DNA from: Ptychodera flava | Lineage: Eukaryota | Length of the DNA stretch: 64,000 nucleotides | Direction: 5' to 3' | NCBI RefSeq assembly: GCF_041260155.1 | Contig: NW_027248355.1 | Coordinates: forward strand, 2,388,078 to 2,452,077 | Shown: piece after piece, positions 1-59,100 of the stretch | How the letters are laid out: every line of letters begins with the position of its first letter | Numbering within the stretch: the first letter of the stretch is position 1 | Made by a program: the position numbers and the translations under genes | The notes under the pieces: model-generated | Databases searched by the model: none | What the model saw: only the letters and a program-made list of their open reading frames with translations | Told to the model about the DNA's origin: nothing

Positions 1-8
1 GCGTTGAG
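1..8 (+). CDS. Last 8 nt of exon 1 of GPCR paralog A. The window opens inside ...TACGCGTTGAG|gtaagc. It is identical to the exon 1 ends of B at 11665 and C at 24542.
   Basis: Sequence gcgttgag followed by gtaagctgcat is identical to the exon1/intron1 junctions of paralogs B and C. The downstream intron sequence is homologous to B and C intron 1. Confidence 0.6.
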
Positions 9-420
9 GTAAGCTGCATTTATCTTAGCCACCAACTGAATTCGTTTTCTAAATAAGTATTTCGTCTAAAATGACGAAGGATTGAAAAGAATCCTTCTTT
101 TCAGTTTTTAGTGTGCACGGTCAAGTTTTCTCTCTTCAACTCCGATATATATTTATTTGCCACAACTTTCTTCTTTTAAAGATTAAATATGCATTCAAAA
201 CATAGTACGTTATAATGTTGGCATGTGTAACCGTATTTTCTAGATAATCATTATTTGTTACCTTCTTTAGCGTATTTTCGTTTTCCACCTTTTATCGATA
301 GTATGAGTATGTCACCTTTTAAAGATTGTATTCTCGGCACGCTATCACTATTCTATTTAGATATAGATGATTTATAATAAGAATTATCAGTTAATCAATA
401 AATTTGTACATAATTACTCA

Positions 421-1370
421 ATATCGCCTGTTCCTGTGTCGTATCAACATTCGTGTCATTTGTGATCCGTCAGACACTCGACTTCGTCTCGTGTCTGACG
501 CATCACAAATGACACTCATGCTGATACGACACAGGAACAGGTGATATTGGGTAATAACAGATTTATCATATACCCATCCCAAAAATTTTACAAATACTGA
601 AGAAAAGCCTTTAAGTTTGAGGCTTTATTTTATTACGCCTTGTGCATAAATGTCGAAATATTTGTGTGAACAGGTTTCATTTATAAACTATAAGCTTACC
701 ACGACCTTGCCAAGAAGTCAACATCACGAGCGACATCACTGCCAGTCCTAAATATCTCAATGAACCCTACGAAGAAAGACACTGGGATTCAAAAATCGTT
801 GTACAGGGGCATCTTTTTAAGGGGCAATACGCTATTACAATTGTACCCTATCAAAAACTGTCCCCCGCTTTAAATCTATCCTGATTTCGATCGCGCTCTG
901 TCGTCGTACGACACAGAGAGGAGCCACCATATCGTTTGTTCACTCTGAGAGTTTTCACATCAACAGGTGTCGCTCGTGTGGCATCGCTGTCGAGCCACGT
1001 GCTCGCTACTTGTCCGGAGGTATACCGTGCCGTGCGAACGGCAGAATATTTGCTCGACCTTGTCTAAAAAATACTAGAACTTTAACAGAAAAACCATGAG
1101 AAAACATTCCATGACTCGACATATTATTTCCGAATTTAGAAACCCGAAATATCCATGTTCCTCAAAGCACTTCAATTTTTCACGTCGTCGACACTGATCT
1201 CCGCAGGCGTAGATCTGCAGCCATTTTGTTTGTTTACGTGATTTACCATCAAAGTGCAAATATAGTTCCTGAACACTCAAAAACCGATGACGTGTATCGT
1301 GCATATCTCGATGTTTACCGTGATATATCGTGGCTGATATTTTACGGTAATCGTCACTAGGATGAGGCGA
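421..1370. mobile_element. Insertion of about 0.95 kb in intron 1 of paralog A. It is absent from intron 1 of C. It has imperfect termini (atatcgcctgttcctgtgtcg ... cgtcactaggatgaggcgatat) and a 5' foldback. It is probably a non-autonomous DNA element.
   Basis: Aligning A intron 1 to C intron 1 (24900-25060) shows this block inserted between gtacataatt and gtactcgttcatgcac. Its ends are inverted-complementary at about 15 of 21 positions. Confidence 0.5.
428..540. repeat. Near-perfect palindrome with arms of about 53 bp and a 15-bp loop, at the 5' end of the intron-1 insertion.
   Basis: cgcctgttcctgtgtcgtatcaacattcgtgtcatttgtgatccgtcagacac ... reverse complement. The B copy at about 12850-12900 has only one arm. 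Confidence 0.8.
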
Positions 1371-1630
1371 TATGGGCATTGGTATATTATGTATTTATCA
1401 GTGTACTCGTTCATGCACTGTTTTATGATTGCTTGTTTCGATTATTTGACAGTTGTTCGAGACCCAAATTTATATCTTTTGTAGTTGACTGCAATCTTGC
1501 AAGAGGAAATAATGAGATGCTATACTCTATGATTAAAAGGTACTAACCAAAATGATGCATACTCATATGTTTGGCTTATAGCTATTACACTAGTCTTACC
1601 CCAGCGTCAATATTAATGTTCAATTTGCAG

Positions 1631-1839
1631 ATATGGGACCATGATGACCAATGTGCGTGCCTGTTCCTTGCTAGCTTTTTTGTGGTTATGGTCCTTGATT
1701 GTGAGCATCCTGCCGACGATTGGCTGGCGTAAACCGGAAGCCGCCATATTGATGACGCCATTGACTGGAAGCTGCAGGTTCGGCCTCTTCTTCGTGGAAA
1801 GTTATGCAATCGCCATAAGTGTTAACACTTCTGTTGCAG
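1631..1839 (+). CDS. GPCR paralog A exon 2. It encodes IL2 (RY.TMMTNVRA), TM4 (LLAFLWLWSLIVSILP), ECL2 with a Cys (GSCRFG) and most of TM5.
   Basis: Acceptor tttgcag|AT at 1629-1630 and donor CAG|gtaagt at 1840-1841. ORF 1641..1847 is in frame with phase-2 entry and phase-1 exit. It is 209 nt, as in B and C. Confidence 0.85.
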
Positions 1840-2559
1840 GTAAGTGATTCTGTTTGTTCGTCTGTTCGGTGTTTTAGAAATCGCATATGGATATGGTAAA
1901 TGATGTTAAGTCGTCAGGTGAGCATGTGCAAAATGTGAGTCTAACACCAACTTTTGTAGATGACACCGTTGAGTGGCAATAGTTAGCTTAGCAGAAAATT
2001 CATACTTGATAAAATGTGCTATTATATGTTTCCTTTTACGTCGGAAAGCAAATGAGATATGAGACATTCAATCCAGCCAGCAACTAATATGACAGACATT
2101 CGGTGACGTAGTTGATCACGTTAGGACTACAGATTTACATGCATTAGCATATGCCATGACACTGCTTTTTCATACAAATACTTTGACATGAATCAAAGTT
2201 TTGGGTTATCCAAAAAAAAATTTATCAAAAGTGAGCGGAAAATTCAATTTAATCTTGTTAAATCTGCTGTCATGCACGAGTCAAAACCAAAGCAATACAA
2301 AACAAAAACCAACCAAACAAACAAACAAAAAAAAAAAACTAAGAAATGCGGACTTACGCTGTTGAAGTGCCACTAACGCTGTTGAAGTGCCACGTCCTGT
2401 AACGCCTTATCTGTAGCAACAAGTGTAATATCGGAAAATGTACGGCTGTTTGAAAGCAATATGTACGATTAGATAGACGACCACGGCAATGAGCAATCGC
2501 AAATAAAAGTGCTGGGGCTCCATATAACGTAAGCACCTTCATCTGTTTCCATTTTCCAG

Positions 2560-2960
2560 TTGCTACCATGTTCATACTCTACGGTTGTATATTCAAGTAT
2601 GCGCGGGAACAAACTCGTAAAATTCTTGCAACCGCTGTGACCCAAGAAACGTCCAAGAACTCGTTTAAAGAATCCAAGCTAAAGCAAAACATACGGACTT
2701 GTGTTGTCCTGTTTGTAATAATGGGTTGCTATCTGCTGTGTATGATTCCGTCCAATGTGATCCTAGCCATAGAATTCGTCGGAGACGGTGACACGGCTAA
2801 CAACGTGCCTTACTTCGCGGGTACGGTGATGGCGTTCTTCAACTCTGCTTTGAACCCATTAATATATGGAAGTTGCAACCGACCATTAAGATTGGCGATC
2901 AAGTCCCGACTTCTTCGTATTCGCTGCAAGAAGAAACCAACGCTCAATCTCACTACATAA
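2560..2960 (+). CDS. GPCR paralog A exon 3 including the TAA stop. It encodes the end of TM5, IL3, TM6 (FVIMGCYLLCMIP), TM7 (NSALNPLIYG) and helix 8 with CKKK.
   Basis: Acceptor ttttccag|TT at 2558-2559 with phase 1. ORF 2568..2960. The NPxxY motif is present and the frame is intact. Confidence 0.85.
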
Positions 2961-3002
2961 TCATCGGATGTTTTCAGGAATGGACGAAACGTATTAATTA
3001 CA

Positions 3003-3227
3003 TGTTAACATGATTGGAACTAATTTGGGATAATCGGATCTTCATATTTTTCAAATTTATAAAAAAAATGCTAGGTGCCATATAGCTGAATGTTGTTATA
3101 TTACAAATTACTCATAAAAATAAGTGTACAACTTGAAAAGAAAAGCACATAAGGTTACATTTGTGGATTAAACAGACATAACTTCACCATCCAATTATCC
3201 CAAATTAGTTCCAATCGTGTTGTTTAT
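3003..3227. mobile_element. MITE of about 225 bp with TIRs of about 27 bp (ttggaactaatttgggataatcggat / atccaattatcccaaattagttccaa). It is inserted in the 3' UTR or flank of paralog A and is absent at the homologous site of C (26560-26600).
   Basis: Inverted terminal repeats read directly. A second copy of the right TIR occurs at 44886-44915. Confidence 0.6.
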
Positions 3228-5764
3228 ATTAATGAAAAAGAAACAAAAAGGTAGAATTCGTCTAAGAGGCAGACATTTTAACTCTCAAACATTTATACTA
3301 TTTTTGTCTGCCTCATGTTGGCGCTCATTCAAACGCACGCTGCATAAATAAAGTTTTAGCCAGCCTACTTTTTTAGAAATAAAAATTTGATTTTCCCCAT
3401 AGATTTAAGCGCAGGGATTTGTAGCCATTTTGAATTGCAAATGTCAGTACAATTTGGACAATTTAATTTAGAGGGATACAACATCAATGACATTTACTGA
3501 GATATAGCTGTTTTGTATTTCATTTTGTCGTAATGTAAGATCATTTTAATATGTCATAAAACAGTTGTGAAACTAAAAATACTGCTGTTAATCGGCAGAG
3601 TTTTTAAGTTTGCTGTAATGTTATGTTTTAATATTTGGTAATTAGACTTTGTTCAACTCGGTGAATATTTAAAAACTAAAATCATATGCTGTAGTTTTTC
3701 TTGCGTCTCTCCTATTTCATATAAACCTACTTGGAATCTGGCAGCCAAGGACACGTTTTCCTAGCAATTGAACGCGTTACCTTTTAGTGTACGCAGTTGT
3801 TAATCTGTTTCTGCCGGTGATTCCGGGAGAAACTCCCCTGTATAGCGTTGACCCTATTCATCGCGTTCACCCCACTCTCTCGTTTCACATTAAAACAGAA
3901 CACAAATCATCGCGTTTACCATACTCAAACATTCACAAATAACAGACTTGAACGAAATCTATATCGTTACATGTGAGGAAACATACCGGGATGAAACACT
4001 TATGTAGCAATACTAAAATTTCTATAACAACGTCGCTTCCAAACGAAAAATATTGACGTGGGTGTCCAAAAACATGCGTAGTAATAACCTCGTCATCCAA
4101 TGCAGGTGCGCACGTGGCTTGAGCAGATCGTAGCTTATTACTTCCGACCTTTGAAAAATATTGCAATTAAAATCGCTCATGCTACGTAAATCTGTGACGA
4201 AAATAACTTTTCTTTTCAAAACAACGAGGTAGCAATTTCCGTTCTTCCCACATGCCTAGTGGCTACGTAGGGAGGCTAATATTGCAAACCTTACCATGAA
4301 ACTGAAAGATGTGATGTAACCTCGATTGGCTATGTTACACGCTTTGCCAAGCATGCCTAGCTAGCTTAAGAGAGTGTTCAGTGGGGAAGGGGAAGCCCGA
4401 CAAAGTCAATTGCGAATATAATATCAAAAATAGAAATCTGCAAAGAGGACTATGCCTTTTTCAAACAGCACAAAAGGGTGAAATGATTTCAAAAATATAT
4501 CCTGTCACGAATCTTTGTTTCAGTGTACAAAATATTCTGGAAAAAAGGGTCATTCTCCTTGAGCTTTCATTCTCTGAATACAGCACACAACTATCCGAAT
4601 ACATGTATTTAGGCCTATATCTAACTAACTTTTTGTCAACAGTATAATCAAAGTCTACGGGCATACCAGAGATTTAAAGAGCAGAGTTTGAATAGCAGGT
4701 TCTTAGCGTGCCGTGGCTGACGTTAGCCAAAACATAAGGTCTGGGAGATATGGCTTTGCTTATACCATTATATGGGGCCAATTAGCCAAAAATTATGACA
4801 GAAATTATTTTCAATCTTATATGGAATTGTATCAAAGTAACATCTTCTTGGGTAAAAGAAGTTGCTCATCACCTGCAAGTGGGAGCTGCCCGGGTAAAAT
4901 TTAGGGCATTTACAGGGGATAAAATGTTTTAACATATTGCACTTAATGTATTTGAAGTTTCAATGTCAAGAGCTTTCATAAAAATGTTGGAAGTGTTAAC
5001 GTATGACACACAGCTGAGCCAGAACCTCATTGATTGTGGCACCAACTGCAGAAGACATATGAGATTTGATACAAATTATCGACATATGATAGTGGACACA
5101 AATTATCTTTAATCCATTGGGAATCGATATCATGTAAAATCTATTCAGAATGATACATTTATTACACTGAATTTATCTGAAAATTCAATTAATAACCTTT
5201 TAATGTATTTTCGGGAGATACTTACCTTTGAGATATGGCTTAACCTGTAGGTTATATATTGACGCTTCATATAACACAAGAATGTAATTATCGAAATAGA
5301 TGATTTTCCTTCATTTAGGATCAGTATCAAAGTAAGAACTTATGAGGATATTAGATTTACTGCAATAACTATATTTGAAGTTTCTACATCGGCAGCTTTG
5401 TAATAAAAATTTTGGAAGTGTTTACTTATGCGAAATGGCTAAGCCTACACCTTATACATTTGGGGCCACACTTGTGACACAAAACACATTATACTTGACA
5501 CAAGTTATTTTAACTTCATGATGGATCAATAAATGTAAGATCTAATTACAATAACTCATTTATACGGTTGCGTCACTGAAGTACGATAAGAAGGAAGTCA
5601 TTGCAATCCCATGATGCTTGTGATTGCATCATCCCTCGCCATTGCCCAACTTCAATAGTTTTTACCTTCATCAAGATTTGAAAGCAATAAAGGTATTCTA
5701 AAGTTACTGAGAAAACTGAAAAAAAACTGATAATACTAGTAGATCGTTTAGGCTTTGGGATAAT

Positions 5765-6615
5765 TAGATATTATTCCCTAATATTTTTCTTCGTTCAGCT
5801 CGGAAAATACTCGTGACGTAATGACCATGTCACCACGAGTCGAAGACGAGTGGTGACATGGTCATTACGTCACGAGTATTTTCCGAGCTGAACGAAGAAG
5901 AATATTAGGGAATAATATACTTATCACATGCACAAGCCAAGAATTCGTTATTTTTTGCAAAATAAAATAAGTTTTCTATGACGATTCCGCGTTTAAACTT
6001 TTGAACTACTTTAGGAATAATAACAGTAAGCCGTGCACAAGTTGTCAATCATTTCCAGTCGTCCGTCGTGTGAGTTAGCGCTCACGTTCGTTAGTGTGTG
6101 GAGCAAATGACAGCTCTCGATCTACACGTAGGCTACCTTCCGCAAAGTCATACTCTATTTCAAAGATAGCATAGTCCTAGAAATTTATCACAGACGAAGA
6201 TACGCTATTTTTTGGGAACAAATATTGACTGAATCTCGACGGCGCGAATACTGCCTGACCCTGTTTGCAATGCGTACGGAACCCACGGTATACGCGACCA
6301 CCTTCGAGTTCGTTGTTTCCGCAAATTATTCACGTAATACCTTCGGAATATCCAGGCGGTACACTCTTGTGTTTACATTGTTCGGATTATTAATGTCGTA
6401 GTCTGTGAAAATATCGATTTCATTACATGACTTTTGATCGTTGGAGAAACATCGGCCGCCACGTTGTTTGTTTACATATTTACGAGCACACCGAAGATCG
6501 ACAAAAAAAAGGTCCGACGCACCAAAATTGATGACATAGACGCGGGTTGTCGTGACGTAGAACGACCAGAGAATAAATCCCGTATTTTTTGTTCGGAGAC
6601 GACAAACTTGGCTTG
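5765..6615. mobile_element. A-unit-specific insertion of about 850 bp. It is absent from the B unit between 17200 and 17230. Its 5' end is a 148-bp hairpin.
   Basis: B sequence goes directly from the homolog of A about 5760 to the homolog of A about 6620 (…gcgtattacatatgcgctttgac…). Confidence 0.5.
5770..5917. repeat. Near-perfect 148-bp palindrome. Arms are 67 bp with 1 mismatch and the loop is the 14 bp gagtcgaagacgag.
   Basis: attattccctaatatttttcttcgttcagctcggaaaatactcgtgacgtaatgaccatgtcaccac | loop | reverse complement. Confidence 0.85.
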
Positions 6616-6820
6616 TGCATGTGATAAAGCATATTACATGATCGCTTTGACCTTCAGCACCTTTGACGAAGACGATAAAGAACATCTTAAAATTGTCTTT
6701 TTCGAAAAGTAAACTACTATGAACCGTAAACAGTCACTTTGTTGAGATACAGATAACATGGCTGCACGAACTTATTGACTTATTAAAACTTGTACAAATT
6801 TATTCAAACCTTTTATATTT

Positions 6821-7264
6821 CTAGAGTAGTTGTGAAAAGTGGCCATGGGATAATAATAAATATTCAATGTTAGTCAAAAGCTGCAAAACATGCAAATTAA
6901 ATACTTTCGTTATTTTTGATTGGGAGACTCGACAAATGAATGGTCGTTGGTTGTACTGTTTAGAAGAGTTGATTTCCTTTTTTATGAAAAGAAATCGGCA
7001 TATCTGAAAAAGTACTGGGTCATATTCTTTCATACCGTGCCTTACAAGGTGAATAAATACAAGCTTGTCCCCGAGAGAGGGTGAAATTATACCGGTACTA
7101 CAGGATGCCATGGGCAAAGCTTTCTTCAGTTTCGCCAAGTAAACCATCTCACATTTATCGAAATAAGAGAAATCATTGTCCATTCTGTAAAGAGATAAAC
7201 AGCTGTACTTTGTGACGTCAAACCCTAGTGATTTCCCCGCGTAGCATGCTATAAGGTTATTCAA
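6821..7264 (-). other. Minus-strand ORF of 147 aa that recurs downstream of all three GPCR paralogs. B homolog is at about 18130-18350 and C is ORF 28176..28391. Function unknown.
   Basis: MDNDFSYFDKCEMVYLAKLK... in A versus MDDDFSYFDYSEMVSLAKLK... in C. It is part of the duplicated unit. Could be TE-derived. Confidence 0.25.
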
Positions 7265-8214
7265 AAAATACCGGGGTTTACGTGCGAGTTAATCATACAA
7301 CGGAGGAAAGCTTATTGTCCTGGACGCTATGTTTCTCGGTCAGTACCCACACGTACGATGTACGAGGGCATAAATCGCTGTATTTTGTGAATAACCTTAT
7401 TATTATATAATATCTGTTAGTCCGATTTTACCTGAAAAGAAGGCTTTTAGGATGCTTCTCATGCACTGCACTGACCGATCGTGAGCAGAAGGGAAACGCG
7501 TTCAGCGCGACCGCTAAGGACACAGCGCACGTGGAGTTCAGCGGCATAATTTCACTCAAATGCACATGTTTTTGACTGGCCAATAATCACTGCATGAATT
7601 ACTGAATGTTTAGATGTATATTTTTGTGAAAAATATAAAATATTATCTTGTTTTCCTGCGTTGGTGTGAAGGTGATGTGTGATGAAACCAATAACACGTA
7701 AAGTTATTGTACCCTGCGTCAAAATTATTGGAATCCGCGTCCTCTGGTACCAGGACCTACTGTACGACAAAACTTCACAGGTTACAGACACAGGTGTAAT
7801 TAAGCAATAAAGCACACCTAGCGACGGTATACCACGAGATTTTGACCTGTTCACAACATATGTGCACGAGCGATATATAGCGAGTGCAAATGAAGTGAAC
7901 TGGTCAAAATCTGGTGGTGTACATGTACCGTCGCTGGGTGTGACTTTTTGCTATCATATCAGAACAGTATCTTGAAATTCTGGCTTGGAACGTCAAAAAT
8001 GGAGTTTTCCTCAAGCTGAGAACCCGGGCGTATGCCAGCCGCGGTGTATCGGCAATATACCATGGTTCTTCTCGCGTCTCGACCAATCAGATCGCTGTAT
8101 TTGCGCAATCAATCTACTGGTATGATATAATAAAGGTATTATCGCATCATCGTCAAAAGTAATGAAACACAGGTTCTCTCACAAATGAGAACCTCCATCA
8201 TTCAACGGTAACCT

Positions 8215-8945
8215 GTGCTGACCTATTATCTGTTCGATGAATTCGCTTGTCTTCAACGCCGTATTGTAGTGACCTTTGGTTTTTTTCAAAGATGCCCACA
8301 TCACTGGATATTGTTGAAAAGCGTTTACATCTCAGATATTGCGAAGTTTAGACCCCTGTGGGAAGCGTTTGTCAATTTGAAGAAATTTCTTGCGATACTA
8401 GTTTCCGAAGAGATTAAATTTGTCAAGACCAACCAATCAGCGAGGAGAAACAATAACAGGAAACATTACATCACGTGGGTCAACCCCCTGTCAGCAAGAG
8501 CTTTGGCTCTGTTATCATAAGAAGTATCTTCAACGTATTGGCAAACACTTTCCAAAGGGGTCTAAACTTCACCAGATCTTCAATAAGAACACAATTAAAG
8601 TTAGTTACAGCTGTATGAAGAATATGGCTAGTATAGTCAAGTGGCATAATACGAGAATAATTGCCGGAGACCAGCGTAAAGATCAACCACCTGATCGTAA
8701 ATGCAGGGACAAGTCTTCATGCCCCTTGAAGGGTAACTATTAAGTCAAAGACATGGTTCACAAGTACAAGGTATCAACGGGGACATTACGGAGAAGGTTT
8801 ACAACGGCCTCACCGATAAAACCATCAAGACGCGCTTTCTAACCATATGCAATCGTACTGTAATGGCAAATACAGGAATACTACAGAGTTGTCAAAGTTT
8901 ATTTGGCACTTAAAAGACAAGGACTATGTCTTTGACGTCTGGTAG
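8215..8945 (+). mobile_element. Degraded transposable-element fragment carrying a GIY-YIG endonuclease-like module preceded by a Cys-rich segment, arranged as in Penelope-like retroelements. The A-unit copy has a decayed frame.
   Basis: Homologous to B 19040-19740, where the GIY-YIG ORF is intact. ORFs 8215..8520 and 8420..8743. Confidence 0.4.
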
Positions 8946-9234
8946 TCGATAATTGACAAAGCATCGAGGTACTCAAACATAAGCAAGCGATGCAATCTTT
9001 AAAGCTGCACATTATCAATGTTGACAGATTCGCTCTTAAACAAACGTTCTGAGTTGGTTTCAAAATGTCTTTAGCAAAACAAATATTATTTATCAAATTT
9101 ACTACCATCTAGAATAGGATGGTACGTCCCTAACATATAAATGAAAGTGTTGAACCGGAAATCCTCTCATTCCTGTCTGAAGATTGCACGTTCCATGAAG
9201 TTATGTAACAGATATTACTTCTTTGTACTTCAAG

Positions 9235-9426
<192 letters not shown>

Positions 9427-9574
9427 AAAACATCGCGAATGCACATAACATGAGAAAGACTGACGGAAAGGCAGATAGACAGACAGGTTTTTAATCAATG
9501 CCTCAAGACTCTACAAGAGGTGTATATTCGTAAGAATGTTCGATAAACTATAAGTAGTGCTCAAGTCCCGATTT

Positions 9575-9675
<101 letters not shown>

Positions 9676-11114
9676 TTATAGTACTATACATTGAACGTAA
9701 AACCATCAATATATCAACGATATGTGGAGTTTTGGTAAGTATTTATTGACTCATTACTAACTGTGACTCTTACTTATTCCTGCTCTCCAGGTTTAAGTCG
9801 AAGGCTTACATACAGGATAATACCTTTTTAGGTATCCATCGTCATATAGACATGCAATCGTAACACTAGCTGTCCTAACAATCATGTACCGATTAGGCAA
9901 TACACAGCTCGATTTATAGAAAATACCAACATCAATATCAGCAGATCAAAAGTCAACAACGCTAATCTTAAACAAAAGATTCTGAAATCACAAAAAATAC
10001 ACTGATCACAATACACAGGTCACAGCCAATTTCAGTGCAAAGTTAGCAGCCAATAAAATGCGACCAGAAAGAAACCTAACCAATCAACATGAAGGTGGAA
10101 ACAAGATTCAACACCAAGGGTACGCTCAATACAAACAAGGTAACAAAAACGTAACGGTTAGTATTTTATGTTAAGAGACACCAACGGTAACTCCACTGTC
10201 TCCAAAAACGAATAAAACATAAGACTACGCAGAGACGAACAGAAAATCCTGCACTGGTGATGGAAGACGTCTTGAACATAGGTGAGTGCACAGTCGCCTG
10301 TGGTCTGTTCCGCTCTGCCATGGACGTGTGCACATGTGCCTGAGAAGATGACGTACTATCTGCACACGTCTATGGGGCGCATAGATGCGGAGCGGAATAG
10401 ACCACATGGGACTGTGGCGAGTGAAAAACAGCAAGACAAGATCCTAGCTCGTACCATGAATCGACAAGAAACTACACAACATTCCAGCTACAGTAAACGT
10501 TGTGAACAACGCACATAAATGGACACAGCATGGGTCAAACAAGGACCACAATACCAAACGGCCTTTGTAAAGGCCAACATATACTCAAAGGGATAGTTAA
10601 CGTATCAACACTGTGCCATGTCTCAGAACTAAAATGTACACTAAAATTACACATAAAATTACAAAATAAATACGAGAAGTAACATCATAAGCGGGCATAG
10701 TAACAGAGAACAAAATATGCATATCACAAATATGTCGCATTACACGAGCACAAAAAACCAAACTGAACATCAATACGAATTTTCCCTTCCAAAATACAGG
10801 ATAGGATACATCTCATGTCGAAGGCATGTCATGAAGAACGCTATTAGGAAACGGTGATAAACCAATCAATCAATTAGATATAGAAAGTGGAATGGCATAC
10901 ACTCATAATTACATAATAAGGAAGTGTCAAAAGTTATTCTATACTACTATACATTAAACGCAAACTACCAACATATGAACGATGTGTTGAGTTGCTTTCA
11001 CATTACTAACTATTACTTGAATCATTTTGCCATTGTTCTTTACCCTAGAGATACTCAGAAATATAACACAATCGACAAACAGAAAACAAGAGACACTCCA
11101 AGTCCTAGCAGCAC

Positions 11115-11288
11115 GAGGTGGAAAAACGTGACAGTGCCTTTACAATTTCATAATTAGAATAGGCGGGTTTGCGCAGTTATGAAAACTTGGGGTTATGAGC
11201 ATCACCTCAACTTGAGACACTTTCATAAGTACAGGATCAGTGTACAATAGTGACATTTACCACGCTGGTTGTCTCAAAGCTACGAAAG
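11115..11288 (+). promoter_or_regulatory. Conserved upstream block of about 170 bp, the putative core promoter and 5' UTR of paralog B. It contains CATAAGTA, TATA-like, about 60 bp upstream of the ATG.
   Basis: Homology between the B and C units resumes exactly here (tgacagtgcctttacaatttcata...gtacaatagtgacat) after non-homologous spacer. No transcript evidence. Confidence 0.35.
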
Positions 11289-11665
11289 ATGGACAGTAAC
11301 GGAAGCACCAAAAACTCGTCAGGTGATGAGGTTTCCACGCACACTATGTCGGCACCGATTCTGACGATGTACCTGACTGTTGCAGCGCTCTGTGTCACCT
11401 TGAACGCTGGCATGATTGCAGTTGTCTATATGGACAGAAAACTGCACACCATCGCCAATATACTCATCTGCAGCATGGCGGTGACTGACCTCCTCGTCGG
11501 TGTTGCCAACATTCCTCTTTACATCGCCTCGAAATTCAGCGTGTTCAGACATCTCTACCAGTGCATATTAGCTCTCAGTTTCACAATATTTCTCGGCATG
11601 GCATCGTCTTGCCATTTATTGCTTATAGCTGTTGACAGATACATTTCTGTTGTATACGCGTTGAG
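11289..11665 (+). CDS. GPCR paralog B exon 1. ATG, MDSNGST N-glycosylation sites, TM1 (LNAGMIAVV), TM2 (SMAVTDLLVG), TM3 ending DRYISVVYAL|R.
   Basis: ATG at 11289 aligns with the start of C (MDSNGST). Donor GAG|gtaagc at 11666-11667, phase 2. ORF 11250..11669. Confidence 0.85.
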
Positions 11666-12842
11666 GTAAGCTGCATTCATCTTAGCCACCAACTGAATTC
11701 GTTTTCTAAATAAGTATTCCGTTTAAAATGAGGAAGGATTGACAAGAATCCTATTTTTCAGTTTTTAGCGTGCAAAGTCCAATTTCTCTCTTCAACTTCG
11801 ATATATTTATTATTTTTTATTTATTTATTCTTTATTTCAGACTGAAATGTCCATATAAGGAAAATACAAAAGGAAGCACCTGAAAAATTCTCTCAGTCCC
11901 TGGAATATATGCTTTTTGCTCAAAAGTTCACAATTTGAAAAAAAAATACACGCCAGAGGAAAAAAAATATTATTTGCCACAACTTTCTACTTTTACAGAT
12001 TAAATTTGCATTCAAAACATAGTGCTTCATAACTTTAGCATGTGTAACCGTGCCCTCGTCGTTTCGATTTCCACCTTTTATCGATAGTGTGTCATATTTT
12101 AAAGATTGTATGTTTTCTTCAAGCTAGGCAGTTTGTAGTTAGGCAGTTTGTCTCGAATCATCGGAATGAGAAGTTCTCCGTATCATCGGAATGAGAAGTT
12201 CTCCGTAAGCGTTCTCTTCTTTACCAAGTGATTGTAAACCGCGAATACAACCTTCCAAGGTGTAGTAAAACATTCTCAGACTGTTAGATGTCACTAGTAG
12301 GTTGAGGTATCTGCCACAGTGTCGTCATGTGCGTATCAATGATCAAATGATTCTGTCCATGGCGTTCGATGAGTAGTTCTAAAGCACAATCACGGTTTGA
12401 GTTTGTCAGGGTGACGAGACCACTAATGGCACGGGCAGCTTCGTTGGTTAAATTGCTGCGTAAGTATGTGAATGTTCTCGAGGCTGCTATCGTTATGGAC
12501 GGGTGATTTGAAAGTGTCGTAAAAACTCACCCATTCGAGTACGTTTCCAGAAAATGTTTTCAATTGGAACTTCGGTAATGCGACCGTTTACTTCAACGTG
12601 TTTTTAGTAGCGTTGGCGGTATTCACTGATGAACCATTTGCATTGACCGGTTTGTTGTTTCTAATGAAATCAGTGATCTTGTCATTTCTCTCGAATATCT
12701 CGGACATGTAGTCGCCGGATTCTTCGCTTGCAGCATTGTAGCTTGGGCCTCGTCGGTATTATCTAACATGTTTTCTTCGATCTTCTGTCTATTACTATAT
12801 AAAGTTTAAATAAACTGTGATTTGTCTTCCACATGTCTGAGG

Positions 12843-13712
12843 CAGTAAAAAATGACACGAATGCTGGTACTACGCAAGGAACAGGCGATATAGTGTAATG
12901 ACCGATTTATCATATACCAGTCCCCTAAATTTTACTTATGCTTAAAAAGGCCTTAAATTTTGAGGCTTTACTTTATTTCGCCTTGCACATAAACGTCGAA
13001 ATATTTGTGCGAACAGGTTTCATTTATAAACTATAAGCGTCCTTACAAGGACCTTACCAAGAAGTCAACATCACGAGCGACATCACTGCAAGTCCCAATA
13101 TCTCAATGAACCCTTAAAAGACAGACACCGGGATTCAAAAGTCGTTGTACAGGAACTTTTTAGGGCAATACGCTATTACAATTGCAACATATCAAAAATT
13201 GTCCTCTCCTTTAAATCTATCCTGATTTCGATCGCGCTCTGTCGTCGTACGATACAGAGAGTGACCTCCAGTTTGTTTGTTATACAGAGAGTTGCCACAT
13301 CAACAGGTGTCGCGCTCGTGACATCGCTGTGACGCCACGCGCTTGCTACTTGTGCGGAGGTATACCGTGCCGTGCGAACGGCGGATGTTTGATCGAGCTT
13401 ATCTGAAAAAATACAAGAAATTTAACAGAAAAACCATGAGAAGACTCGACATGTTAGTTCCGAAATTAGCAACCCGAAATATCATTGTTCCTCAAAGTCC
13501 TTCAATTTTTACGTCGGCGGCACCGATCTCCGCAGGCGGAGATAAGCAGGTACTTTGTTTGTTTACGTAATTTACCATCAAATTGCTGCAAATATAGTTC
13601 GGGAACACTCCAAAACCGATGATGTTTATCGCGCATATCTCGATGTTTACCTTCATATATCACGGCTGATATTTTACGGTAAACTTTACTAGGATGAGTG
13701 GATATGGACATT
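12843..13712. mobile_element. Orthologous copy of the intron-1 insertion in paralog B. An additional B-specific block of about 730 bp sits at 12110-12840, with short internal tandem duplications at 12121-12200.
   Basis: Homology of 12930-13720 to A 600-1380. The 3' end ggatgagtggatatggacattgg matches the A terminus. Confidence 0.45.
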
Positions 13713-13960
13713 GGTATAATATGTATCTATCATTGTACTCGTCCATGCACTAATTGATTGCTTGTTTTCATTACTCAACAGGTTTTTTAAGACCAAAATT
13801 TATATCTTTTGTAATTGATGCAATTTTGCAAGAGGAAATAATGAGATGCTATAATGAATGATCAAAAGATACAAACCAAAATGATGCATACCCATATGTT
13901 TGGGATATAGCTATTACACTAGCCTTACCCCCAGCGTCAATATTGATGTTCAAATTGCAG

Positions 13961-14169
13961 ATATGAAACCATTATGACCAACGTGCGTGCCTGTTCCTTG
14001 CTTGCTTTTTTGTGGTTATGGTCCTTGATTGTGAGCATCCTGCCGATGATTGGCTGGCGTAAACCGGAAGCCGCCATATTAATGACGCCATTGTCTGGAA
14101 GCTGCAGGTTCGGCCTCTTCCTTGTGGAAAGTTATGCAGTTGCCATAAGTGTTAGCACTTCTGTTGCAG
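13961..14169 (+). CDS. GPCR paralog B exon 2
   Basis: Acceptor attgcag|AT at 13959-13960 and donor CAG|gtttgt at 14170-14171. Splicing gives ...YALR-YETIMTNVRACSLLAFLWLW... with W4.50. Confidence 0.85.
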
Positions 14170-14283
14170 GTTTGTAATTCTGTTTGCTCGACTGTTCTGT
14201 ATTTTAGAATTCGCATATGGATATGATAAATAGTCTTTAGTCGTCAGGTGGCGTAAGTACCTTTATCTATTTCTATTTTTCAG

Positions 14284-14684
14284 TTGCTACCATGTTCATA
14301 CTGTACGGTTGTATATTCAAATATGCGCGGCAACAAATTCGCAAAATTCGTGCAACCGCTGTGACCCAGGAAACGACCCAGAATTCGTCCCAAGAATCCA
14401 AGCTGAAGCAGAACATACGGGCGACAATTGTCCTGTTTGCGATAATGGGTTGCTATCTGCTGTGTATGATTCCGTCCAATGTGGTCCTAGCCATAGAATT
14501 CGTCGGAGACGGTGACACGGCTAACAACGTGCCTTACTTCGCGGGCACGGTGGTGGCGTTCTTCAACTCTGCTTTGAACCCAATAATATATGGAAGTTGC
14601 AACCGACCATTAAGACTGGCGATCAAGTCCCGACTTCTTCTTATTTGCTGCAAGAGGAAACCAACGCACAATCTCACTGCATAA
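14284..14684 (+). CDS. GPCR paralog B exon 3 including stop
   Basis: Acceptor tttttcag|TT at 14282-14283. Intron 2 is only 114 nt here. ORF 14292..14684. Carries GCYLLCMIP, NPIIY and CCKRK. Confidence 0.85.
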
Positions 14685-17589
14685 TCATCGGGCAATTTAA
14701 TTTTTTTGTACAAAGTTCTGCGAGATGTCCGTGATTTTTTTTTATTTATATATTTATAAAAGGAAATGATTTCAGATTTCTTAGAGAAAGTTTCACCAAA
14801 ATATTAAGTTTTCATAATTTAGAGTTATACAACATTAATGACATTTACTGAGATATAGCCGTTTTGTATTTGTATTTGTCGTAATGTAAGATCATTTTAA
14901 TTTTTCAAAAAACAGTTACGAAACTAACAATACTGCTGTAAATCAGCGAATTTTTAAGTTTCCTGTAACGTAATGTTTTAAGATTTGGTTATTGAACTTG
15001 GTTTAACTCGATGAATTTCTAAAACATAAAATTATTTGCAGTAGTTTTCCTTATGTCTCTCCTATTTCATACAAACCTATTTGGGATTTGGCAGCCCAAG
15101 CAAGGTTTTCCTAGTGATTGAACGCGTTACCTTTTAGTGTACGCAGTTGTTAATCTGTTTGTGCCGGTGATTCCGGGAGAAACTCCCCTGTATAGCGTTC
15201 AAATTTACCCCAATCATCGCGTTTACCTTACTCACGTGCTTCACATTAAAACAGAACACAAATCATTGCGTTTACTCTACTCAAACATTCACAAATCACA
15301 GACTTGAACCAAGTCTATTTCGTTACGTGTGAAAACTCATACGGTAATGAAACACTCATATAGGAATAATAAAATTTCTAATACAACGTCGCTTCCAAAC
15401 AAAAAATATTGATGTGAGTGTCAAAAAACATGCGTAGTAATAACCTCATCATCGAATGCAGGTGCGCATGTGGCTTGAGCAGATCGTAGCTTATTACTTT
15501 AAGAGTCCGACCTTTGAAAAATATTGCAATTAAAATCGCTCATGCTACGTAAATTTGTGACGAAAATAACTTTTCTTATCAAAGCAACGAGGTAGCAATT
15601 TCCGTGCCTCTCACATGCCTGGTAGCTACGTAGGGAGGCTAATATTGCAACCTGATCATGAAACTGAAAGATGTGACGTAACCCCGATTAGCTGTGTTAT
15701 ACGCTGTCGTGAAGCATGCCTAGCTTTAGAGAATGTTCAGTAGGGAGAAGCGAAGGCCGACAAAGTCAATGGAAATGTAATATCAAAGATAGGAAATCTG
15801 CCACGGAGATTATGCCTTTTTCAAACAGCGCACGGTCAAATGATTTCAAAAATATACACTGTTGATGATGCTGTCACAAATCTTTGTTTCAGTGTAAAAA
15901 TATTCCGAACAAAAAAACAGTCATTTTCCTTGAGTTTTCATTCTCTGAATACAGCATACAACAATCTAAATACATATATATCAATCTTACCAGCTTTTTG
16001 CCAACGTACCAATCAATGTCTATAGGCATACCAGAGATTTTAAGAGCACAGTTTGAATGGCGGGTTCTTGGCGTGCCGTGGCTGACGTTAGCGAAAGCAT
16101 AAGTTCACGCTAGGAGATATGGCTTACCTTATACCTTTATACGGGGCCAATGAACGACAAATTGTGGCATAAATTATTTTCCATCTCTTATGGGATTGTA
16201 CAAAGTAACATCTTGTCGGGTAAAATGTTTTGGCATGTTTTGCACTAAATGTATTTGAAGTTTCAATGTCAAGAGCTTTTTCAAAAACATGTTGGAAGTT
16301 TTAACCTATGAAACAGCCCATGTGAGGGCGCTGTTTTTAAATAGCGGCCAGCCGCCTAAAATCTGATTTGTTAGATTTTCTCTTTCTTTAGTAACTGTGG
16401 CAAAGTTGGTACAGGTAACAGTATACCTTTAACCTATGAAACACAGCTGAGCCAGAACCTCATTCATTGTGGCACCAATTGCAGAAGACATGATTTGATA
16501 CAAATTACTGACATATGATAGTGGACAAAAATTATCTTTAATCCATGGGGAATCGATATCATGTAAAATCTATTCAGAATGATACATTTATTACACTGAA
16601 TTTATCTGAAAATTCAATTAATAACCTTCTCATGAATTTTCGGGAGATACTTACCTTTGAGATATGGCTTAACCTGTAGGTTATATATTGACGCTTCATA
16701 GAACACAAGAAGGTAATTATCGAAATAGATGGTTTTGCTGCATTTACTAGTAGGATCAGTATTTAAGTAAGATCTAATGAGGATATTAGATTTATTGCAA
16801 TAGCTATATTTGAAGTTTCTACATCGGCAGCTTTGTAATAAAAATGTTGGAAGTGTTTACCTATGCGACATTGCTTCAGCTACACCTTATACATCTGGAG
16901 CCCCAATTATGACACAAAACATATGATAGTTGACACAAGATTTTTAACTTTATGATGGATCAATAAATGTAAGATCTAATTACAATAATTAATTTATACG
17001 CTTGCGTCTCTGCAGTACGATAAGAACAAAGCCATTGCAATCCTATGATGCTTGTGATTGCATCAATCCTCGCCATTTCCCAGCTTCAATAGTTTTTACT
17101 TTAATCAAGATTTGAAATCAATACAGTTGTAATGAAATTACTAAGAAAAATGGGAAAAAACCTGGCAGCACAAGTAGATTGTTTGGGCTATGGAATGAAG
17201 CGTATTACATATGCGCTTTGACGAAGAGGAATATCTTTAAATTGTCTTTTTCAAAAAATCAACTAGTATGAACCGCAACAGTGACTGCGCGAGCTTATTG
17301 ACTCAGTGCTATCGTGGTAATATTTGACTCCTAATTATTTGTGTAACTCGGTCAATTTATAATGACTTTTATCTCTCCAAGATTTGACCCCTGGTTTTTT
17401 TGTTTGAAGAGAATGGTTCAACGCATCCTTCAGGAAAATTTGAGCAAAAGTTTAAATATTCCTCCTGCACTACAGGCTTTAAGCTGCCATTTGCAAATAT
17501 TCCCTACATCAAGTTCACAGTTGGTGTCTTTGGTAGTGTATAATCAAGGTAGAAACGCACCTCGGGACAGACATTCGGACTCTAAAACT

Positions 17590-24542: not shown

Positions 24543-24656
24543 GTAAGCTGCATTCATCTTAGCCACCAACTGAATTCGTTTTCTAAATAAGTATTCCGTC
24601 TAAAATGAGGAAGGATTGGAAAGAATCTTACTTTTCAGTTTTTAAAGTGCACGGTC

Positions 24657-24660
<4 letters not shown>

Positions 24661-24737: not shown

Positions 24738-24739
<2 letters not shown>

Positions 24740-29590: not shown

Positions 29591-29595
<5 letters not shown>

Positions 29596-40908: not shown

Positions 40909-41759
40909 CTGGAACAAAGAAGAAATAAAAAAATTATTGACTGTCGTCAAAATTCCCCTGTAGACCTTTACCATCTAGCAGTGAAAAGGAAAGCCTACAA
41001 CATTGTCAACGATTCTGATCACCCTCTTCATGGTTACTTCCAGAAGCTCCCGTCAGGGAGACGTTATCGGGTCCCTCATGCAAAGAAAAAGCTCTTCAAA
41101 AAAGTCATTTCTTCCATCAGCAGTTTTTAAACTAAAACTTGATGTCATTGTTTTAAACTTCCAGTTGGTCCTTAGTTGTTTCCGTCTGTTTCAATTTTTG
41201 TATCTATGTCGCTACTTTGTGTGTTTTTAACCATTTCAATGTGTAATAGCGTCCCTTATTATAGATTTCTCTTGCCAGTTGTACTTTTTTAAATATGATG
41301 AGCCTGAAGGCAAATTTCTGCATGATTTTTATGGATAATAAAGTAAATGAATTGAATAAAGTAGAGTGCGGCGCCTTGTTTCACTGCGGTATGCGCAAAT
41401 CTTAACAATAACACATGTTATTATCCAAGACTTTGAGCACTCGTCGACATCATGGTTTTGCCATTTTTATGGACCTGTCTTAAAAAGTTTGTTTTATTGT
41501 ATTAATGTATAACATTACCGGCCAATAGTGTCCAGTATATTATAGAGGCTTTTAGAGTTACGCATTTTCCCTAATGAGAGCAATCATCATGGAGCCAATC
41601 AACACAAGTTTACCGGAAATATCAGAAATTAATCAATGTATCGACCATGGAATACTCGTGACATAATGACGGTATCCATTCGTAGTGACACCGTCATTAC
41701 GTCACTCGTATCTTTAATTCGCTGAACCACAGAGTAACATAGACAGAGTAGCAACACTT

Positions 41760-42445
41760 GCATGCCTTTTGTTCCATGGTCGTCTCGGTAGACTATCGGC
41801 TTTTCATATTAAAATGAGCTCCAAAGGTGTTAAACTTTTTGGAGGCTTTGTTTGTGGTTGATGATTACACGAGATTATGCGAAAAATACGACGAGATGGC
41901 ATCGTACTGCCAGTCGCGTAGCAACCATAGTTACTTTGTGAGCTCTCAGGCCAGAAACACTGCTTCACGCCAATCAAAACATAACACGGCAGCAGTTTCA
42001 TAAACATGTCCTTCCTTGACGCACGTGTAAAAGAGGGTACGACTGACCGTAAACCATTGAGTAAAACAAGACAGTATCGATAAAATACTTTAAAATTTGG
42101 TTCAAACACACTCATTATATATTCATAAAAATATGAAGGAATTTTTAAAACGGTAAAACTCATTTTCCTGAAGCTCAAAACACTCCCGTTTTCGCCAGCA
42201 CGTCAATTCTGCTCAGCACCACACGACAACAACAATACAAACTTTGCCGAACATACTTTCGCTTAACAATTGGCGAAAATCCGAAAACTACCAAAGGATT
42301 CATGGTCGGCACTCTTCGGAAAAGAGAGGCGAGAGCAACCTGAGGCGAGGCGAACATGGATGGGTTACGTAACCGCTTCACGCCTTAAACAATACCCGTT
42401 GCCACTCTATCTATCTTTCTCTATGGCTGAACGAAGAAAATATCA
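41760..42445. repeat. Arm 1 of a large inverted repeat of about 670 bp. It pairs with 49775-50410.
   Basis: Reverse complement of 49790-50410 aligns throughout. The mirrored ORFs 41804..42178(-) and 50150..50347(+) give ...CYVLIGVKQCF.PESSQS.YGCYATGS.MPSRRIFRIISCN... Confidence 0.8.
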
Positions 42446-43325
42446 ACAACAACGTGTATATAGTCCCACGGAATATTTCTCTTTGATGTCATCGTGTAGG
42501 AGTGTGTGTTTTTTGTCTTGTTTTTGTTAGTTTTGTTTTTGGTGGGGAGCCGTAAAACTTCGAGTCGTCATTGCTGCTTGTTACGCTATATTATCGTACG
42601 TGTCCTACCTTGGGTGGGTTTACACTGTCGAAATCATTAAATTGCTTTGTTTCTGCAGACCATGTGATGATATTGGACACTTGTGTAGCCACTTCCTTTG
42701 TAATACGCGATTTTTCTGCGGCTGTCTCGCCAGTTGGTTGACCAGGGTGATATTCACCGTAAAATCTTTAATTAGAGAGATGCACATTATTGTAATTCGA
42801 GGAATTTGATCGTACATCTCATTCATCGGTGTGTCAGTGTAAGGAATACGTTCTGTAACGATTTCAATGTGTCTGCATATATGAAAACTTGATTTTCAGC
42901 ACTTTCAATCATAACAAGATATTTCAAACAATCGTTTCTGGATTTAATTCCTAATTCATTGCTTCTTCTTCATTTTTTTGACAATTTGGAAAACAGCTAG
43001 CAAAATCTGAAAAAAGTAACAAAACCTATACTAGAAAAGAGTTTGTCGAATTAATCCGTCTTTTGAATGAATTTAATAAATGAATGAATGAATAAATAAA
43101 TAAGTAAACAAATAAATAAATAAATAGATAAATAAATAATTTGAAAATCTGCAAAATTAAAAAAACAGCAACGAAACCTATACAAGCGGACAGTTCGTAC
43201 AAGTGATCAGTTCTTTGAATTCAATCAATCAATCAATCAATCAAATAACTTAACAAATTACCAGAAGGGGAATTGATTACTCATGTCACACAGCGAAGAT
43301 AGAAATGAGAAGGATATGAGAAATA

Positions 43326-56160: not shown

Positions 56161-59100
56161 AATTATAACTAAAAATACTGCCCTGACCTCGCATCCAAGG
56201 TTTTGGTAGCAGTAACTTATTACTCAGTATTCAAAGTGCAATCAAAATATTTTCACCTTAAAGAGAGGTGGTGGTCGGAAATGCGCATGTGCAACTTTCT
56301 TGATTACAAACATTGTATTTCATGCACTATATATAGATGCATCATGTCAAAATAGCTGCGACATTTAAATTTAACAATGTACATTGAGACAAACATGTTT
56401 TAACTTTCATCAATCGCCAACGTACCTTGGATACAGTGTTTATATCGGTCGTAGGGGTCCCTAGCGACCTTTGAGCGCCGATCCGACGACCACCGCCCTT
56501 TAAGCTTTAGGATTAAGTAGTCACAAAGCATGACACAAATTTTCAACATTCTACCTTTTGTTTTCGGGACATCACAGTGATTGATCGACGGTGTTCAACT
56601 GCGGCAGCGGGACCTGTGTTGTAGCGGCATCATTCAAAATATTTGTCGCGCGCTAACAAAAAGCGTCACACACACACAGACACACACACACACCACACAC
56701 ACACACAGAGGTATATTATTCACACGAGCTCTACCCGTGCCACAATCCACAGGTGTCAGCGAGCACGAACTATCCAGAATGCACGACAGAACATCGCTTC
56801 ATAATTATAACTAAAAATACTGCCCTGACCTCGCATCCTAGGTTTTGGTAGCAGTAACTTATCACTCAGTATTCAAAGTGCAATCAAAATATTTTGAATG
56901 AAAGACGTTTTACCAATACGCAATACGGTCTGTGACTATTTATGTGCTGGTTAACAGATATTCGCCACTATAGTCAATACGCAAACATTTACTGGTGGGT
57001 CATCAACATCTGGGTTATAATCCTGTGAAGGGCTTAGAATTGCGATATGTGTCGCTGGCAAATTGAAATTACTTGTGATGTACTTGTGATTACATCGATG
57101 TACATGGAAAAATACATCGCAATAGGACTCTTACCTGACAACAAAACTAAGATAATCTCACAGAAGTTGTAAATTGTTGGTACATTGTTTTACGAAAACG
57201 CCACTATATTCGACGCCTTGCAAAAATACCGATGCGCAACCCGAATAAGACTGAAAGTATTTCACTTGAAAGTATATCGGGGAGTCTGTTTAATGCGTGG
57301 AGAATAGCGATAGATGTCGGTCTTAAAGCTGGTATAACTATGTGAGTGGGTACCGGAGTAAAGTGGTCCATAAATGGCACCCTTGTTCAAGTTTTTAATC
57401 ATTACCTCTGGGTTCAGAGCCCCGATGCAAAATTATTATCCTCAAATTATTTATTGCCGGTTTCATAAAATAAAGTGAACCTGGTTTTCATATCATATAC
57501 TCATTTCCGTTTCACATCACGGATTAATTACACTTATTGAATATTACCACGACGCTGAGCAGAAAGCCAAACAGTGCTTGTCGACGCATGCATTACTATA
57601 TATAATCCCATGGTATTTTTCTCTGTTTGACGTCATCGTATACGAGTGTTTCGGCTCGAAGTTGTACGGCTCCGCGAAAAACACGAGTATACGCGTACGA
57701 TGACGTCAAACAGAGAAAAATTCCATGGGATTATATATTTATCACATGAACAGTCTTCTTATTTTTCTTTGATGTGGATGGATCAAAATTATTGTAACAA
57801 ATTGCATGGTTTTTATCGCGATTTTGTGTTTTTCCTTACGCGGATTACTTTCATTTATTGGGTAAAGCGGTCCGTCACCCAGGAGATGTGCGAATGTTTA
57901 CAGGCATACTTTCATTCATAAATCCGATTAAGCTGAACTTTTGATACATGAAATGGTATCTCCACCAATCAGACATACGGATTCGGTCACATGCGCATGT
58001 CAATCATTGTCTCGCGCTGGACCTCTGCCAGGGCAAGTCTACCATCGGCGGACATGACTTTCACCGCGCTAGCGACAGATAACCATAGTATTTTGACTTA
58101 TTCAGAATATTTACAATTATATTTATGAAACTAATGCAACGACACGATCGAAACAGTAGTTACCATTCTTAGAGATGCTGTGGATATTAAAATATCACAA
58201 GTTTACGACCTTAGGCGAGCCCGAAAGTTTCAGATCGATGACACACACAGAGTGTACGCTTGTAAGTTGTAGTGGGCACTGCCGTCACCGGTCTTCGCCG
58301 GTGGCCATCTCGGTCGTCAATTTTTCGTCTTACGGATTTTGATGTTTGCTGCGACACATATATCGCCCGTAGGTACATCCCAATTTTGTTACTTGACGGG
58401 AACTCTGTTCTGTTGTGAGTGTTTTCCTAGTCAACTTTCGAAATACATCGGATTCTACGGCGCTGCACTGTAGGTCGACAGCTTATATGTTTTCACTTAC
58501 GCTGCAGGTTTGATTCCGATCGAGAAACGACGGAATAATTTGGGTGATGAAGGAAATTTATCGTTGTTCGTAAAATAACTTTATGCTTGTGCCTTCTATG
58601 TCGCTTTCCCGAAGATAATACGGTACTCATTTATTAAGTTGAACTTTCGTTGAGGTGTGTATTTCGGGTTTATCGCCAACCTCGATCGCCAGGTACGACG
58701 TCGCTTGGCGATCGCCAGGTTCGACGACGTCCACTTTTAGCCTTACCACTTGAGCTGTGACGTTGCTTAGCCATTATAACGATCGATGGTATCCTCATTC
58801 GATTCTTGGGAATAGCTGAAGCTTTAGCGACTCGAAATGTCGTTGGACATGCCTTCTATATTTCCATATCTTGATTTATCGGGTCACCTTTTTGTCAAAA
58901 TGTCATGAGAGCACGGCATCGATCACGACAAATCGGTCTGTGTGGCAACGTGCATGTACGAACGGTACCATTGCAGAAAAAAGTTCCGGTTGATGACGTA
59001 CAACAGCGGTAATATGGATTTCTTATCTGTGCTGGTGTACGTCACACAGGTGGAGATACGGGCCAGTTCATGTGATAATCATTTATAATATTACGTTCAT

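Follow-up and report, generated by a model that had tools for sequence, protein, structure and literature searches.

Long palindromes in a 64-kb stretch of the Ptychodera flava genome as probable terminal stem-loops of non-autonomous Helitron-like elements

The stretch of Ptychodera flava DNA considered here (contig NW_027248355.1, positions 2,388,078 to 2,452,077 of the forward strand; 64 kb in all, referred to below as the window) has a G+C content of 38% and contains a set of long palindromes that are probably transposon ends. Its first part holds a tandem triplication (1-36000) with a unit of ~12 kb, divided into unit A (1-11657), unit B (11658-24534) and unit C (from 24535). Each unit has two coding exons of a rhodopsin-type G protein-coupled receptor (for example, 11250-11669 with 14292-14684, and 24166-24546 with 26089-26532), and a database search with one of these exons returned no homologue. 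Units A and B are ~86-91% identical and units A and C ~80%, the third unit being heavily rearranged past ~28.4 kb. Coding capacity is short throughout, and no open reading frame (ORF) longer than 178 amino acids (aa) was found in the whole window.

The three palindromes named in an initial annotation of this DNA are all present, essentially at the positions given there. The first, at 5768-5918 (centre 5843), has arms of 69 bp (5768-5836 and 5850-5918) with one mismatch (5786/5900) around a 13-nt apex, and the 67-bp arms with one mismatch that had been described were correct to within 2 nt. Folded as single-stranded DNA, this hairpin reaches -79.8 kcal/mol, compared with -13.6 kcal/mol in shuffled sequences (z = -26.7). 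The second, at 41652-41715, has arms of ~19-22 bp and a loop of 10-20 nt (z = -4.9). The third, at 57598-57738, contains TGACGTCA, as had been noticed, and folds with z = -14.6 relative to shuffles, but its arms, previously put at about 55 bp, consist of a 43-bp outer part and an imperfect inner part with an indel. Two further long palindromes are absent from the initial annotation, one at 413-555 with arms of 65-70 nt that are 87-89% complementary, and one at 38255-38389 that is unrelated to the other hairpins. Naive palindrome searches of the window are dominated by (TA)n tracts, which need to be filtered out; long (TA)n and (CT)n microsatellites lie at 9237-9374, 29595-29668, 31067-31230, 9585-9680, 24660-24740 and 51970-52140.

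Around the 5768 palindrome, the initial annotation had proposed an insertion of ~850 bp specific to unit A, and this was borne out. The whole block 5763-6627 (element E1; Table 1) is missing from unit B, where A5761 aligns with B17196 and A6661 with B17216 in separate alignments of the two flanks. Judged by eye, the empty site is at ~17198/17199, where the flanks join as GGAATGA|AGCG. The flanks of E1 itself (...GGGATA | AGCATA...) correspond to T|T on the element strand, and a clear target-site duplication (TSD) is not seen; because the paralogues are ~88% identical, the boundaries of E1 are good to only +/-2-5 nt. The 413 palindrome belongs to an element designated E0, which is found in units A and B and for which a block of ~415-1383 is missing from unit C, with A415 aligning to C25003 and A1384 to C25013. 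A similar element, E2, carries the third palindrome; its six-frame translation contains no Pfam domains, and no further copy of its body was found within the window.

E0, E1 and E2 are three independent units with a single layout, in which a palindrome is followed by a short inverted repeat, an unrelated non-coding body of 0.7-1.3 kb and a second short inverted repeat. Exactly six copies of the motif TTATCAYATR are present in the window, all of them element ends: four (563, 5921, 12907 and 57739) lie 0-8 nt from a palindrome, and the two inverted partners are at 6618 and 59069. The hairpin begins 0-8 nt past the subterminal inverted repeat (subTIR) in E1, in E2 and in both copies of E0, and the palindrome is found at the same end of every element. 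Two cases could be tested, with unit B for comparison in E1 and unit C in E0, and in both of them the paralogous site lacks palindrome and body as one block, which argues against two independent insertions. No convincing direct repeat was found for E0, E1 or E2, whether around the pair of terminal inverted repeats (TIRs) or around the whole unit, and the minus-strand junctions of all three can be written as T|T insertions, although not uniquely so. Among other transposon types, a piggyBac-type miniature inverted-repeat transposable element (MITE) with CCC...GGG ends was rejected because the flanking tetranucleotides are TTAT/ATAA and not TTAA, and hAT, PIF and Tc1 readings of the elements with TTATCACATG ends were rejected because 8-bp, TWA or TA duplications are lacking.

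Table 1. Elements, element parts and remnants associated with the long palindromes of the window
Feature	Position	Strand	Description
E1	5763..6627	-	HLE2-like element of 865 bp, non-autonomous and complete; unit A only
E1 layout		-	5'-subTIR, body, subTIR, stem-loop-3'
E1 terminal stem-loop	5768..5918	-	element-strand apex CACTCG-T-CTTCG-A-CTCGTG
E1 subTIR adjoining stem-loop	5921..5941	+	TTATCACATGCACAAGCCAAG; 21/21 inverted match to 6607-6627
E1 far-end subTIR	6607..6627	-	5' end on element strand; perfect 21-nt inverted copy
E2	57598..59078	-	second HLE2-like non-autonomous element, ~1.48 kb; E1-type termini, body unrelated to E1
E2 ends	57739 and 59069	+ and -	TTATCACATG
E2 terminal stem-loop	57598..57738	-	outer arms 43 bp with 1 mismatch
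E2 subTIR abutting stem-loop	57739..57751	+	TTATCACATGAAC; 13/13 inverted match to 59066-59078
E2 far-end subTIR	59066..59078	-	perfect 13-nt inverted copy
E0, unit A copy	415..1379	-	older element with E1/E2 layout
E0 (A), parts			palindrome 413-555; 7-nt gap; TTATCATATACCCATCC 563-579; body; imperfect inverted partner GGATGAGGCGATATGGGCAT 1360-1379
E0, unit B copy	12834..13713	-	retains subTIR-proximal arm 12834-12899, TTATCATATA at 12907 and body
E4 remnant, part 1	41652..41727	.	apex and inner arms of E1-type stem-loop; right arm (…CGTCACTCGTATCTTTAATTCGCTGAAC) runs to TSD GCTGAAC
E4 remnant, part 2	42426..42444	.	same arm resumes beyond inserted transposon (GCTGAACGAAGAAAATAT)
Fragment F	42456..42567	+	first arm and apex of E2-type stem-loop, in opposite orientation; second arm missing

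Kinship among the hairpins is uneven. With three mismatches allowed, the core ACTCGTGACRTAATGAC, which the initial annotation had attributed to all three of its palindromes, is matched four times in the window against 0.34 expected, and only in both arms of the 5768 and 41652 palindromes; it is therefore common to these two and missing from the one at 57597. The ACTCGTG/GACGT words that had been thought to link this last palindrome to the others are not significant alone (z = 1.8). E1 and E2 do have a common subTIR, and their stem bases are weakly similar (z = 3.7). When JGI metagenome contigs were scanned for exact matches to the core in its two-armed form (ACTCGTGACRTAATGAC N15-45 GTCATTAYGTCAC), 0 were found, and two Saccoglossus loci compared with the window contained no common repeat DNA, no comparable palindromes and no TTATCAYATR.

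The 41652 palindrome belongs to a remnant, E4, whose arms have a 20-nt core in common with those of E1 (19/20 identical). With the intervening 698 bp removed, E4 aligns to positions 38-138 of the E1 palindrome with a score of 45, compared with 17.7 +/- 2.3 for shuffles, and a CA>GG change in one arm is paired with TG>CC in the other, which preserves complementarity. As judged from these alignments, the 41652 palindrome is a degraded but true relative of the 5768 hairpin. It was placed by the initial annotation exactly at the edge of an inverted repeat at 41760; it does adjoin this repeat, but lies 12 nt outside it, the repeat homology beginning at 41728. The repeat itself consists of two inverted copies of a non-autonomous TIR transposon of 640-700 bp (41728-42425 and 49794-50426, 83-94% identical) with a 30-nt TIR, CACAGACAAATAGAGAAACAGACTAGCAAC, that is perfect in the right copy, and each copy has its own 7-bp TSD (GCTGAAC on the left, CTTATAC on the right). 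The palindrome stands at the edge of the repeat because the left copy was inserted into an arm of the old E4 hairpin. The apparent 8-kb inversion is a pair of transposon copies and not an inversion promoted by palindromes. Fragment F, nearby, matches the E2 arm at 44 of 49 positions (z = 16.7), and its apex is colinear with the minus strand of E2 (z = 11.2). The idea that the loop of F is flipped relative to E2 was rejected, the fragment merely being in the opposite orientation.

The arms of E0 and E1 are unrelated, and their hairpins (469-499 and 5828-5858) have in common a 19-nt apex, CACTCG-N-CTTCG-N-CTCGTG, with 17/19 matches (z = 8.3) that are seen only when one of the two is inverted relative to its body. 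The two differing bases amount to an A..T to T..A swap, which could close a CTTCG pentaloop. Relative to the body, the apex has the same orientation in E1, E2 and F and is flipped in E0; this could reflect an inversion between the arms after insertion or a property of the transposition mechanism. Arms that diverge between subfamilies yet remain self-complementary, together with the common E0/E1 apex, fit recognition by a protein of both the structure of the stem and the sequence of the loop. The common apex, the compensatory arm changes and the single flipped apex amount to concrete hypotheses on what a transposase would read. In the telomeres of parvoviruses, a step of hairpin transfer or self-priming is known; to our knowledge, nothing of the sort has been described for Helitron-like elements, and flip and flop apices, if common genome-wide, would point to such a step in transposition. 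One proposal, to which we give little weight, is that the elements represent an HLE2 lineage in which the whole right terminal sequence is a perfect hairpin of ~150 nt with the conserved apex CACTCG-N-CTTCG-N-CTCGTG in both orientations.

Altogether, terminal stem-loops of non-autonomous HLE2 (Helentron/Helitron2; 'HINE'-type) elements probably account for the 413, 5768 and 57597 palindromes as well as for the 41652 remnant and the 42456 fragment. HLE2 elements have inverted repeats of 8-16 nt at both ends, of which the 5' repeat is terminal and starts with T and the 3' repeat is directly upstream of a terminal stem-loop; their right ends are more conserved than their left ends, and they insert between T and T without a TSD (PMC11417382, PMC4067079, PMC3627910, PMC5148889). 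For Helitron2, the 3' asymmetric terminal inverted repeat (ATIR) is immediately upstream of the hairpin and the 5'-ATIR is 0-2 bp from the end, the 5' base being T (Bao & Jurka 2013, PMC3627910). In the window, the paired repeats are present as 13/13 matches in E2, 21/21 in E1 (slightly long) and an imperfect match over ~12 positions in E0, the reference ranges being 8-16 nt for HLE2 and the 11-18 nt used by HELIANO. A stem-loop is found at one end of each element, with z from -14.6 to -26.7, and is atypically long at ~150 nt. The multi-copy, dispersed character of HLE2 and its conserved 3' ends also have their counterpart here: within 64 kb there are three independent units and two remnants, with unrelated bodies and with the subTIR, stem base and apex in common. 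Moreover, Hemichordata are among the groups for which proteins of Helentrons are reported, Saccoglossus being one source (PMC4067079), and the closest protein match of the window is to the acorn worm Saccoglossus.

The mechanism that would go with this architecture is drawn by analogy with those published for Helitron-like elements. In the published model, a Rep/helicase protein first nicks the left end; it then unwinds the strand and cuts a second time shortly past the stem-loop, which gives a circular intermediate (PMC13085455). Here, the 5' end would be nicked and the strand unwound by a Rep/helicase (HUH, Y2) transposase whose gene lies at another place in the genome; the enzyme would take the single-stranded hairpin extruded at the opposite end as a stop or second-cleavage signal, circularise the strand and integrate it between two T's, after which inserted copies would decay neutrally. 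As the proposed end signal of the transposase, the hairpin would act in cis for the transposon and not for the host.

Several points weigh against this interpretation. That the hairpin end is the 3' end is an assumption, and 'HLE2-reverse' elements bearing the stem-loop at the 5' end are known (PMC11417382). The hairpins, at ~150 nt with arms of 43-74 nt, are much longer than the 5-10-bp stems described for HLE2 and HINE elements, and the short right end of HLE2 (~20-60 bp) is replaced by a subTIR-to-3'-end distance of ~150-160 nt in E0, E1 and E2. The E1 repeat (21 nt) exceeds the usual 8-16 nt, and the far-end TIR of E0 is weak, with ~12 matched positions across roughly 15-20 nt. A 5'-terminal hairpin of the Helitron2 kind was not found, the 60-nt 5' ends of E1, E2 and E0 folding like shuffled sequence (z from -0.03 to -0.8). 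Because the empty-site paralogues are AT-rich and only 80-90% identical, the precise boundaries, T|T insertion and the lack of a short TSD are at most compatible with the data. Finally, an autonomous Rep/Hel partner with matching ends is assumed to lie in the genome beyond the window.

The same points give some room to a TSD-less, short-TIR transposon bearing a single long hairpin at one end and mobilised by something other than a Helitron-type Rep/helicase, belonging either to an undescribed family or to a DDE family in which divergence of the paralogous empty sites conceals the TSD. A hairpin about 5-10 times longer than in HLE2 descriptions, the absent 5' hairpin and the 21-nt TIR of E1 would suit such a transposon, as would the degenerate duplications of 7-13 bp that other flank alignments allow at the E1 and E0 sites (ATTAGAT/ATTACAT and TTTGTACATAATT/TATGGGCATTG). 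These candidates are poor, however, matching at 6/8 positions or at 8/13 with a gap in AT-rich sequence, and accepting them as genuine would leave the composite without a TIR at its actual ends. The qualitative features, on the other hand, all match or are compatible with HLE2, for which proteins are known from hemichordates, and we regard a transposon of this other type as unlikely. A further reading, in our view quite unlikely, treats each palindrome as a separate palindromic MITE or foldback-type transposon that happened to land next to an unrelated TIR transposon or that has the ends of such transposons as its target. The window does contain a genuine stand-alone palindromic MITE (38252-38392, 140 bp) with a 9-bp TSD, GC(T/C)TTCAAT, nested in another TIR element, and the bases of the palindromes studied here are AT-rich, which makes short TA-type TSDs possible. 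That MITE serves as an internal contrast from the same genome, as no direct repeat surrounds the 413, 5768 or 57597 palindrome alone, where TTAT/ATAA is found instead of TTAA. The TIR elements taken alone likewise lack TSDs, all three TTATCA-type elements have the palindrome at the same end, 0-8 nt away, and the palindromes are absent together with the adjoining element of ~0.7-0.8 kb at both testable empty sites, none of which accords with the definition of a foldback element or palindromic MITE. Of the functions offered by the initial annotation, foldback transposon termini came closest to the evidence, in that transposon termini are involved; these are not foldback elements, since the palindrome lies at one end of a TIR-bounded element and moves with it.

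A role of the hairpins for the host, as sources of small RNA, or damage to it, as fragile sites behind the local tandem duplications and the inversion, is very unlikely. The hairpins are extremely stable as single strands, one of them (E4) took a transposon insertion in its arm, and the palindrome of the E0 copy in unit B was broken 1 nt from the stem/loop junction and replaced by a retrotransposon fragment, three points in its favour. That unit B copy has lost its outer arm together with 81 bp of flank (12112-12899 compared with 332-555), and exactly one arm of the 413-type palindrome is left, up to the stem/loop junction. The gap at 12112-12833 is filled by 722 bp of minus-strand BEL/Pao gag (Pfam DUF1759, E = 4.8e-10), which is therefore not part of E0. 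This is the sole local event that fits palindrome breakage; it looks like centre-breakage of a long palindrome with repair by filler DNA and, as a single case (n = 1), has the standing of an anecdote, while offering a small natural example of long-palindrome loss. The proposal that such sites promoted the duplications and inversion was otherwise unsupported, as the 'inversion' consists of two transposable element copies with separate TSDs and no palindrome lies at the junctions between the tandem ~12-kb units. Hairpin presence varies between paralogous units, as would be expected of insertions, and the hairpins lie in intronic or intergenic DNA and degrade about as fast as neutral sequence. 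For the E0 hairpin, which is old and whose insertion predates the A/B duplication, self-complementarity is 87-89%, compared with ~86% A/B identity over the element; in the young hairpin of E1, a single mismatch is found among 69 positions. Hairpins thus seem to start perfect and then to decay neutrally, which argues against host selection. A search of the whole window with Rfam families gave 0 matches at gathering thresholds.

Other repeats and ORFs complete the picture of the window. The TIR element that hosts the nested MITE (37868-38680) has 65-nt ends that are 98% identical and is flanked by AACCAAACAGA(T/C)A, a duplication of 11-13 bp; a 32-nt palindrome is found at 38584-38615. Small MITE-like inverted-repeat pairs, with arms of 21-34 nt and spacers of 90-160 nt, occur at 3007-3221, at 7251-7400 (corresponding to 18340-18489 in unit B) and at 8343-8570, and a near-perfect palindrome of 34 nt occurs at 48828-48861; like the other small pairs, it does not resemble the hairpins studied here. 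A dispersed repeat of ~290 bp is present at 17594-17880 and 55865-56150 (78-83% identical), and copies that match less well are found around 26.6 kb and 35 kb. An intron-less ORF of 178 aa (40438-40974, minus strand) has as its only homologues two uncharacterised Saccoglossus kowalevskii proteins, with 49-61% identity, and a 98-aa ORF (43326-43622, minus strand) includes …FKLDVEGAEYGIL… and presumably resembles an FkbM-type methyltransferase.

For annotation, the reading as HLE2 ends means that the long palindromes would be ordinary repeats with an unusually long hairpin and not a new kind of element, to be masked as transposon ends rather than treated as regulatory hairpins or rearrangement hotspots. 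HLE2 finders of the HELIANO type may misplace the right ends of such elements, because they expect short TIR pairs and a short right terminal sequence.

Among known systems, the bacterial HUH elements IS200/IS605 and IS91 are similar to the elements as interpreted here in having single-stranded hairpins at their ends as cis signals for the transposase and in making no TSD, but the likeness is one of mechanism only, as these elements are prokaryotic, have much shorter hairpins and have no TIR pair. Foldback (FB) elements and palindromic MITEs likewise have long, near-perfect inverted repeats that fold into hairpins and are short and non-coding. They are symmetric, however, their inverted repeats forming both ends, and they produce TSDs, whereas each palindrome described here marks a single end, lies outside a TIR pair distinct from it and has no flanking direct repeat. 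Closer similarity is found with Helitron2 (PMC3627910), including FoHeli1/2 of Fusarium (PMC5148889), in the asymmetric TIRs, the terminal 5' repeat with its T, the apparent absence of a TSD and the position of the 3' repeat directly upstream of a terminal hairpin. In Helitron2, the 3' ATIR is 20-50 bp from the end and a second hairpin is found at the 5' end, in contrast with the ~150-160 nt seen here and with 5' ends for which no hairpin is predicted.

The non-coding HINE or DINE-1-like elements (Thomas, Vadnagara & Pritham 2014, PMC4067079), such as Cg_HINE of the Pacific oyster (PMC7492417), also carry a short subterminal inverted repeat at either end, have a palindrome or stem-loop just past the right-hand repeat at the 3' end, and combine conserved 3' ends with variable bodies; they insert into T-rich or TT sites without a TSD, which the junctions seen here would allow. 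HINEs are abundant in marine invertebrates, and the Helentron family is known from Hemichordata at the protein level (PMC4067079, PMC7492417). The elements of the window differ from HINEs in lacking central tandem repeats or a microsatellite, in having no inverted repeat or palindromic subTIR at the 5' end, and in the length of the E1 TIR (21 nt compared with 11-15 nt). The main difference is in the stem-loop, which here measures ~140-150 nt, with arms of 43-74 nt, and fills the 3' tail, compared with a 5-10-bp palindrome within a right flank of ~60 bp in HINEs. If the assignment to HLE2 is right, a Helitron-like family with near-perfect terminal hairpins of 150 nt would extend the known range of the right-end signal.

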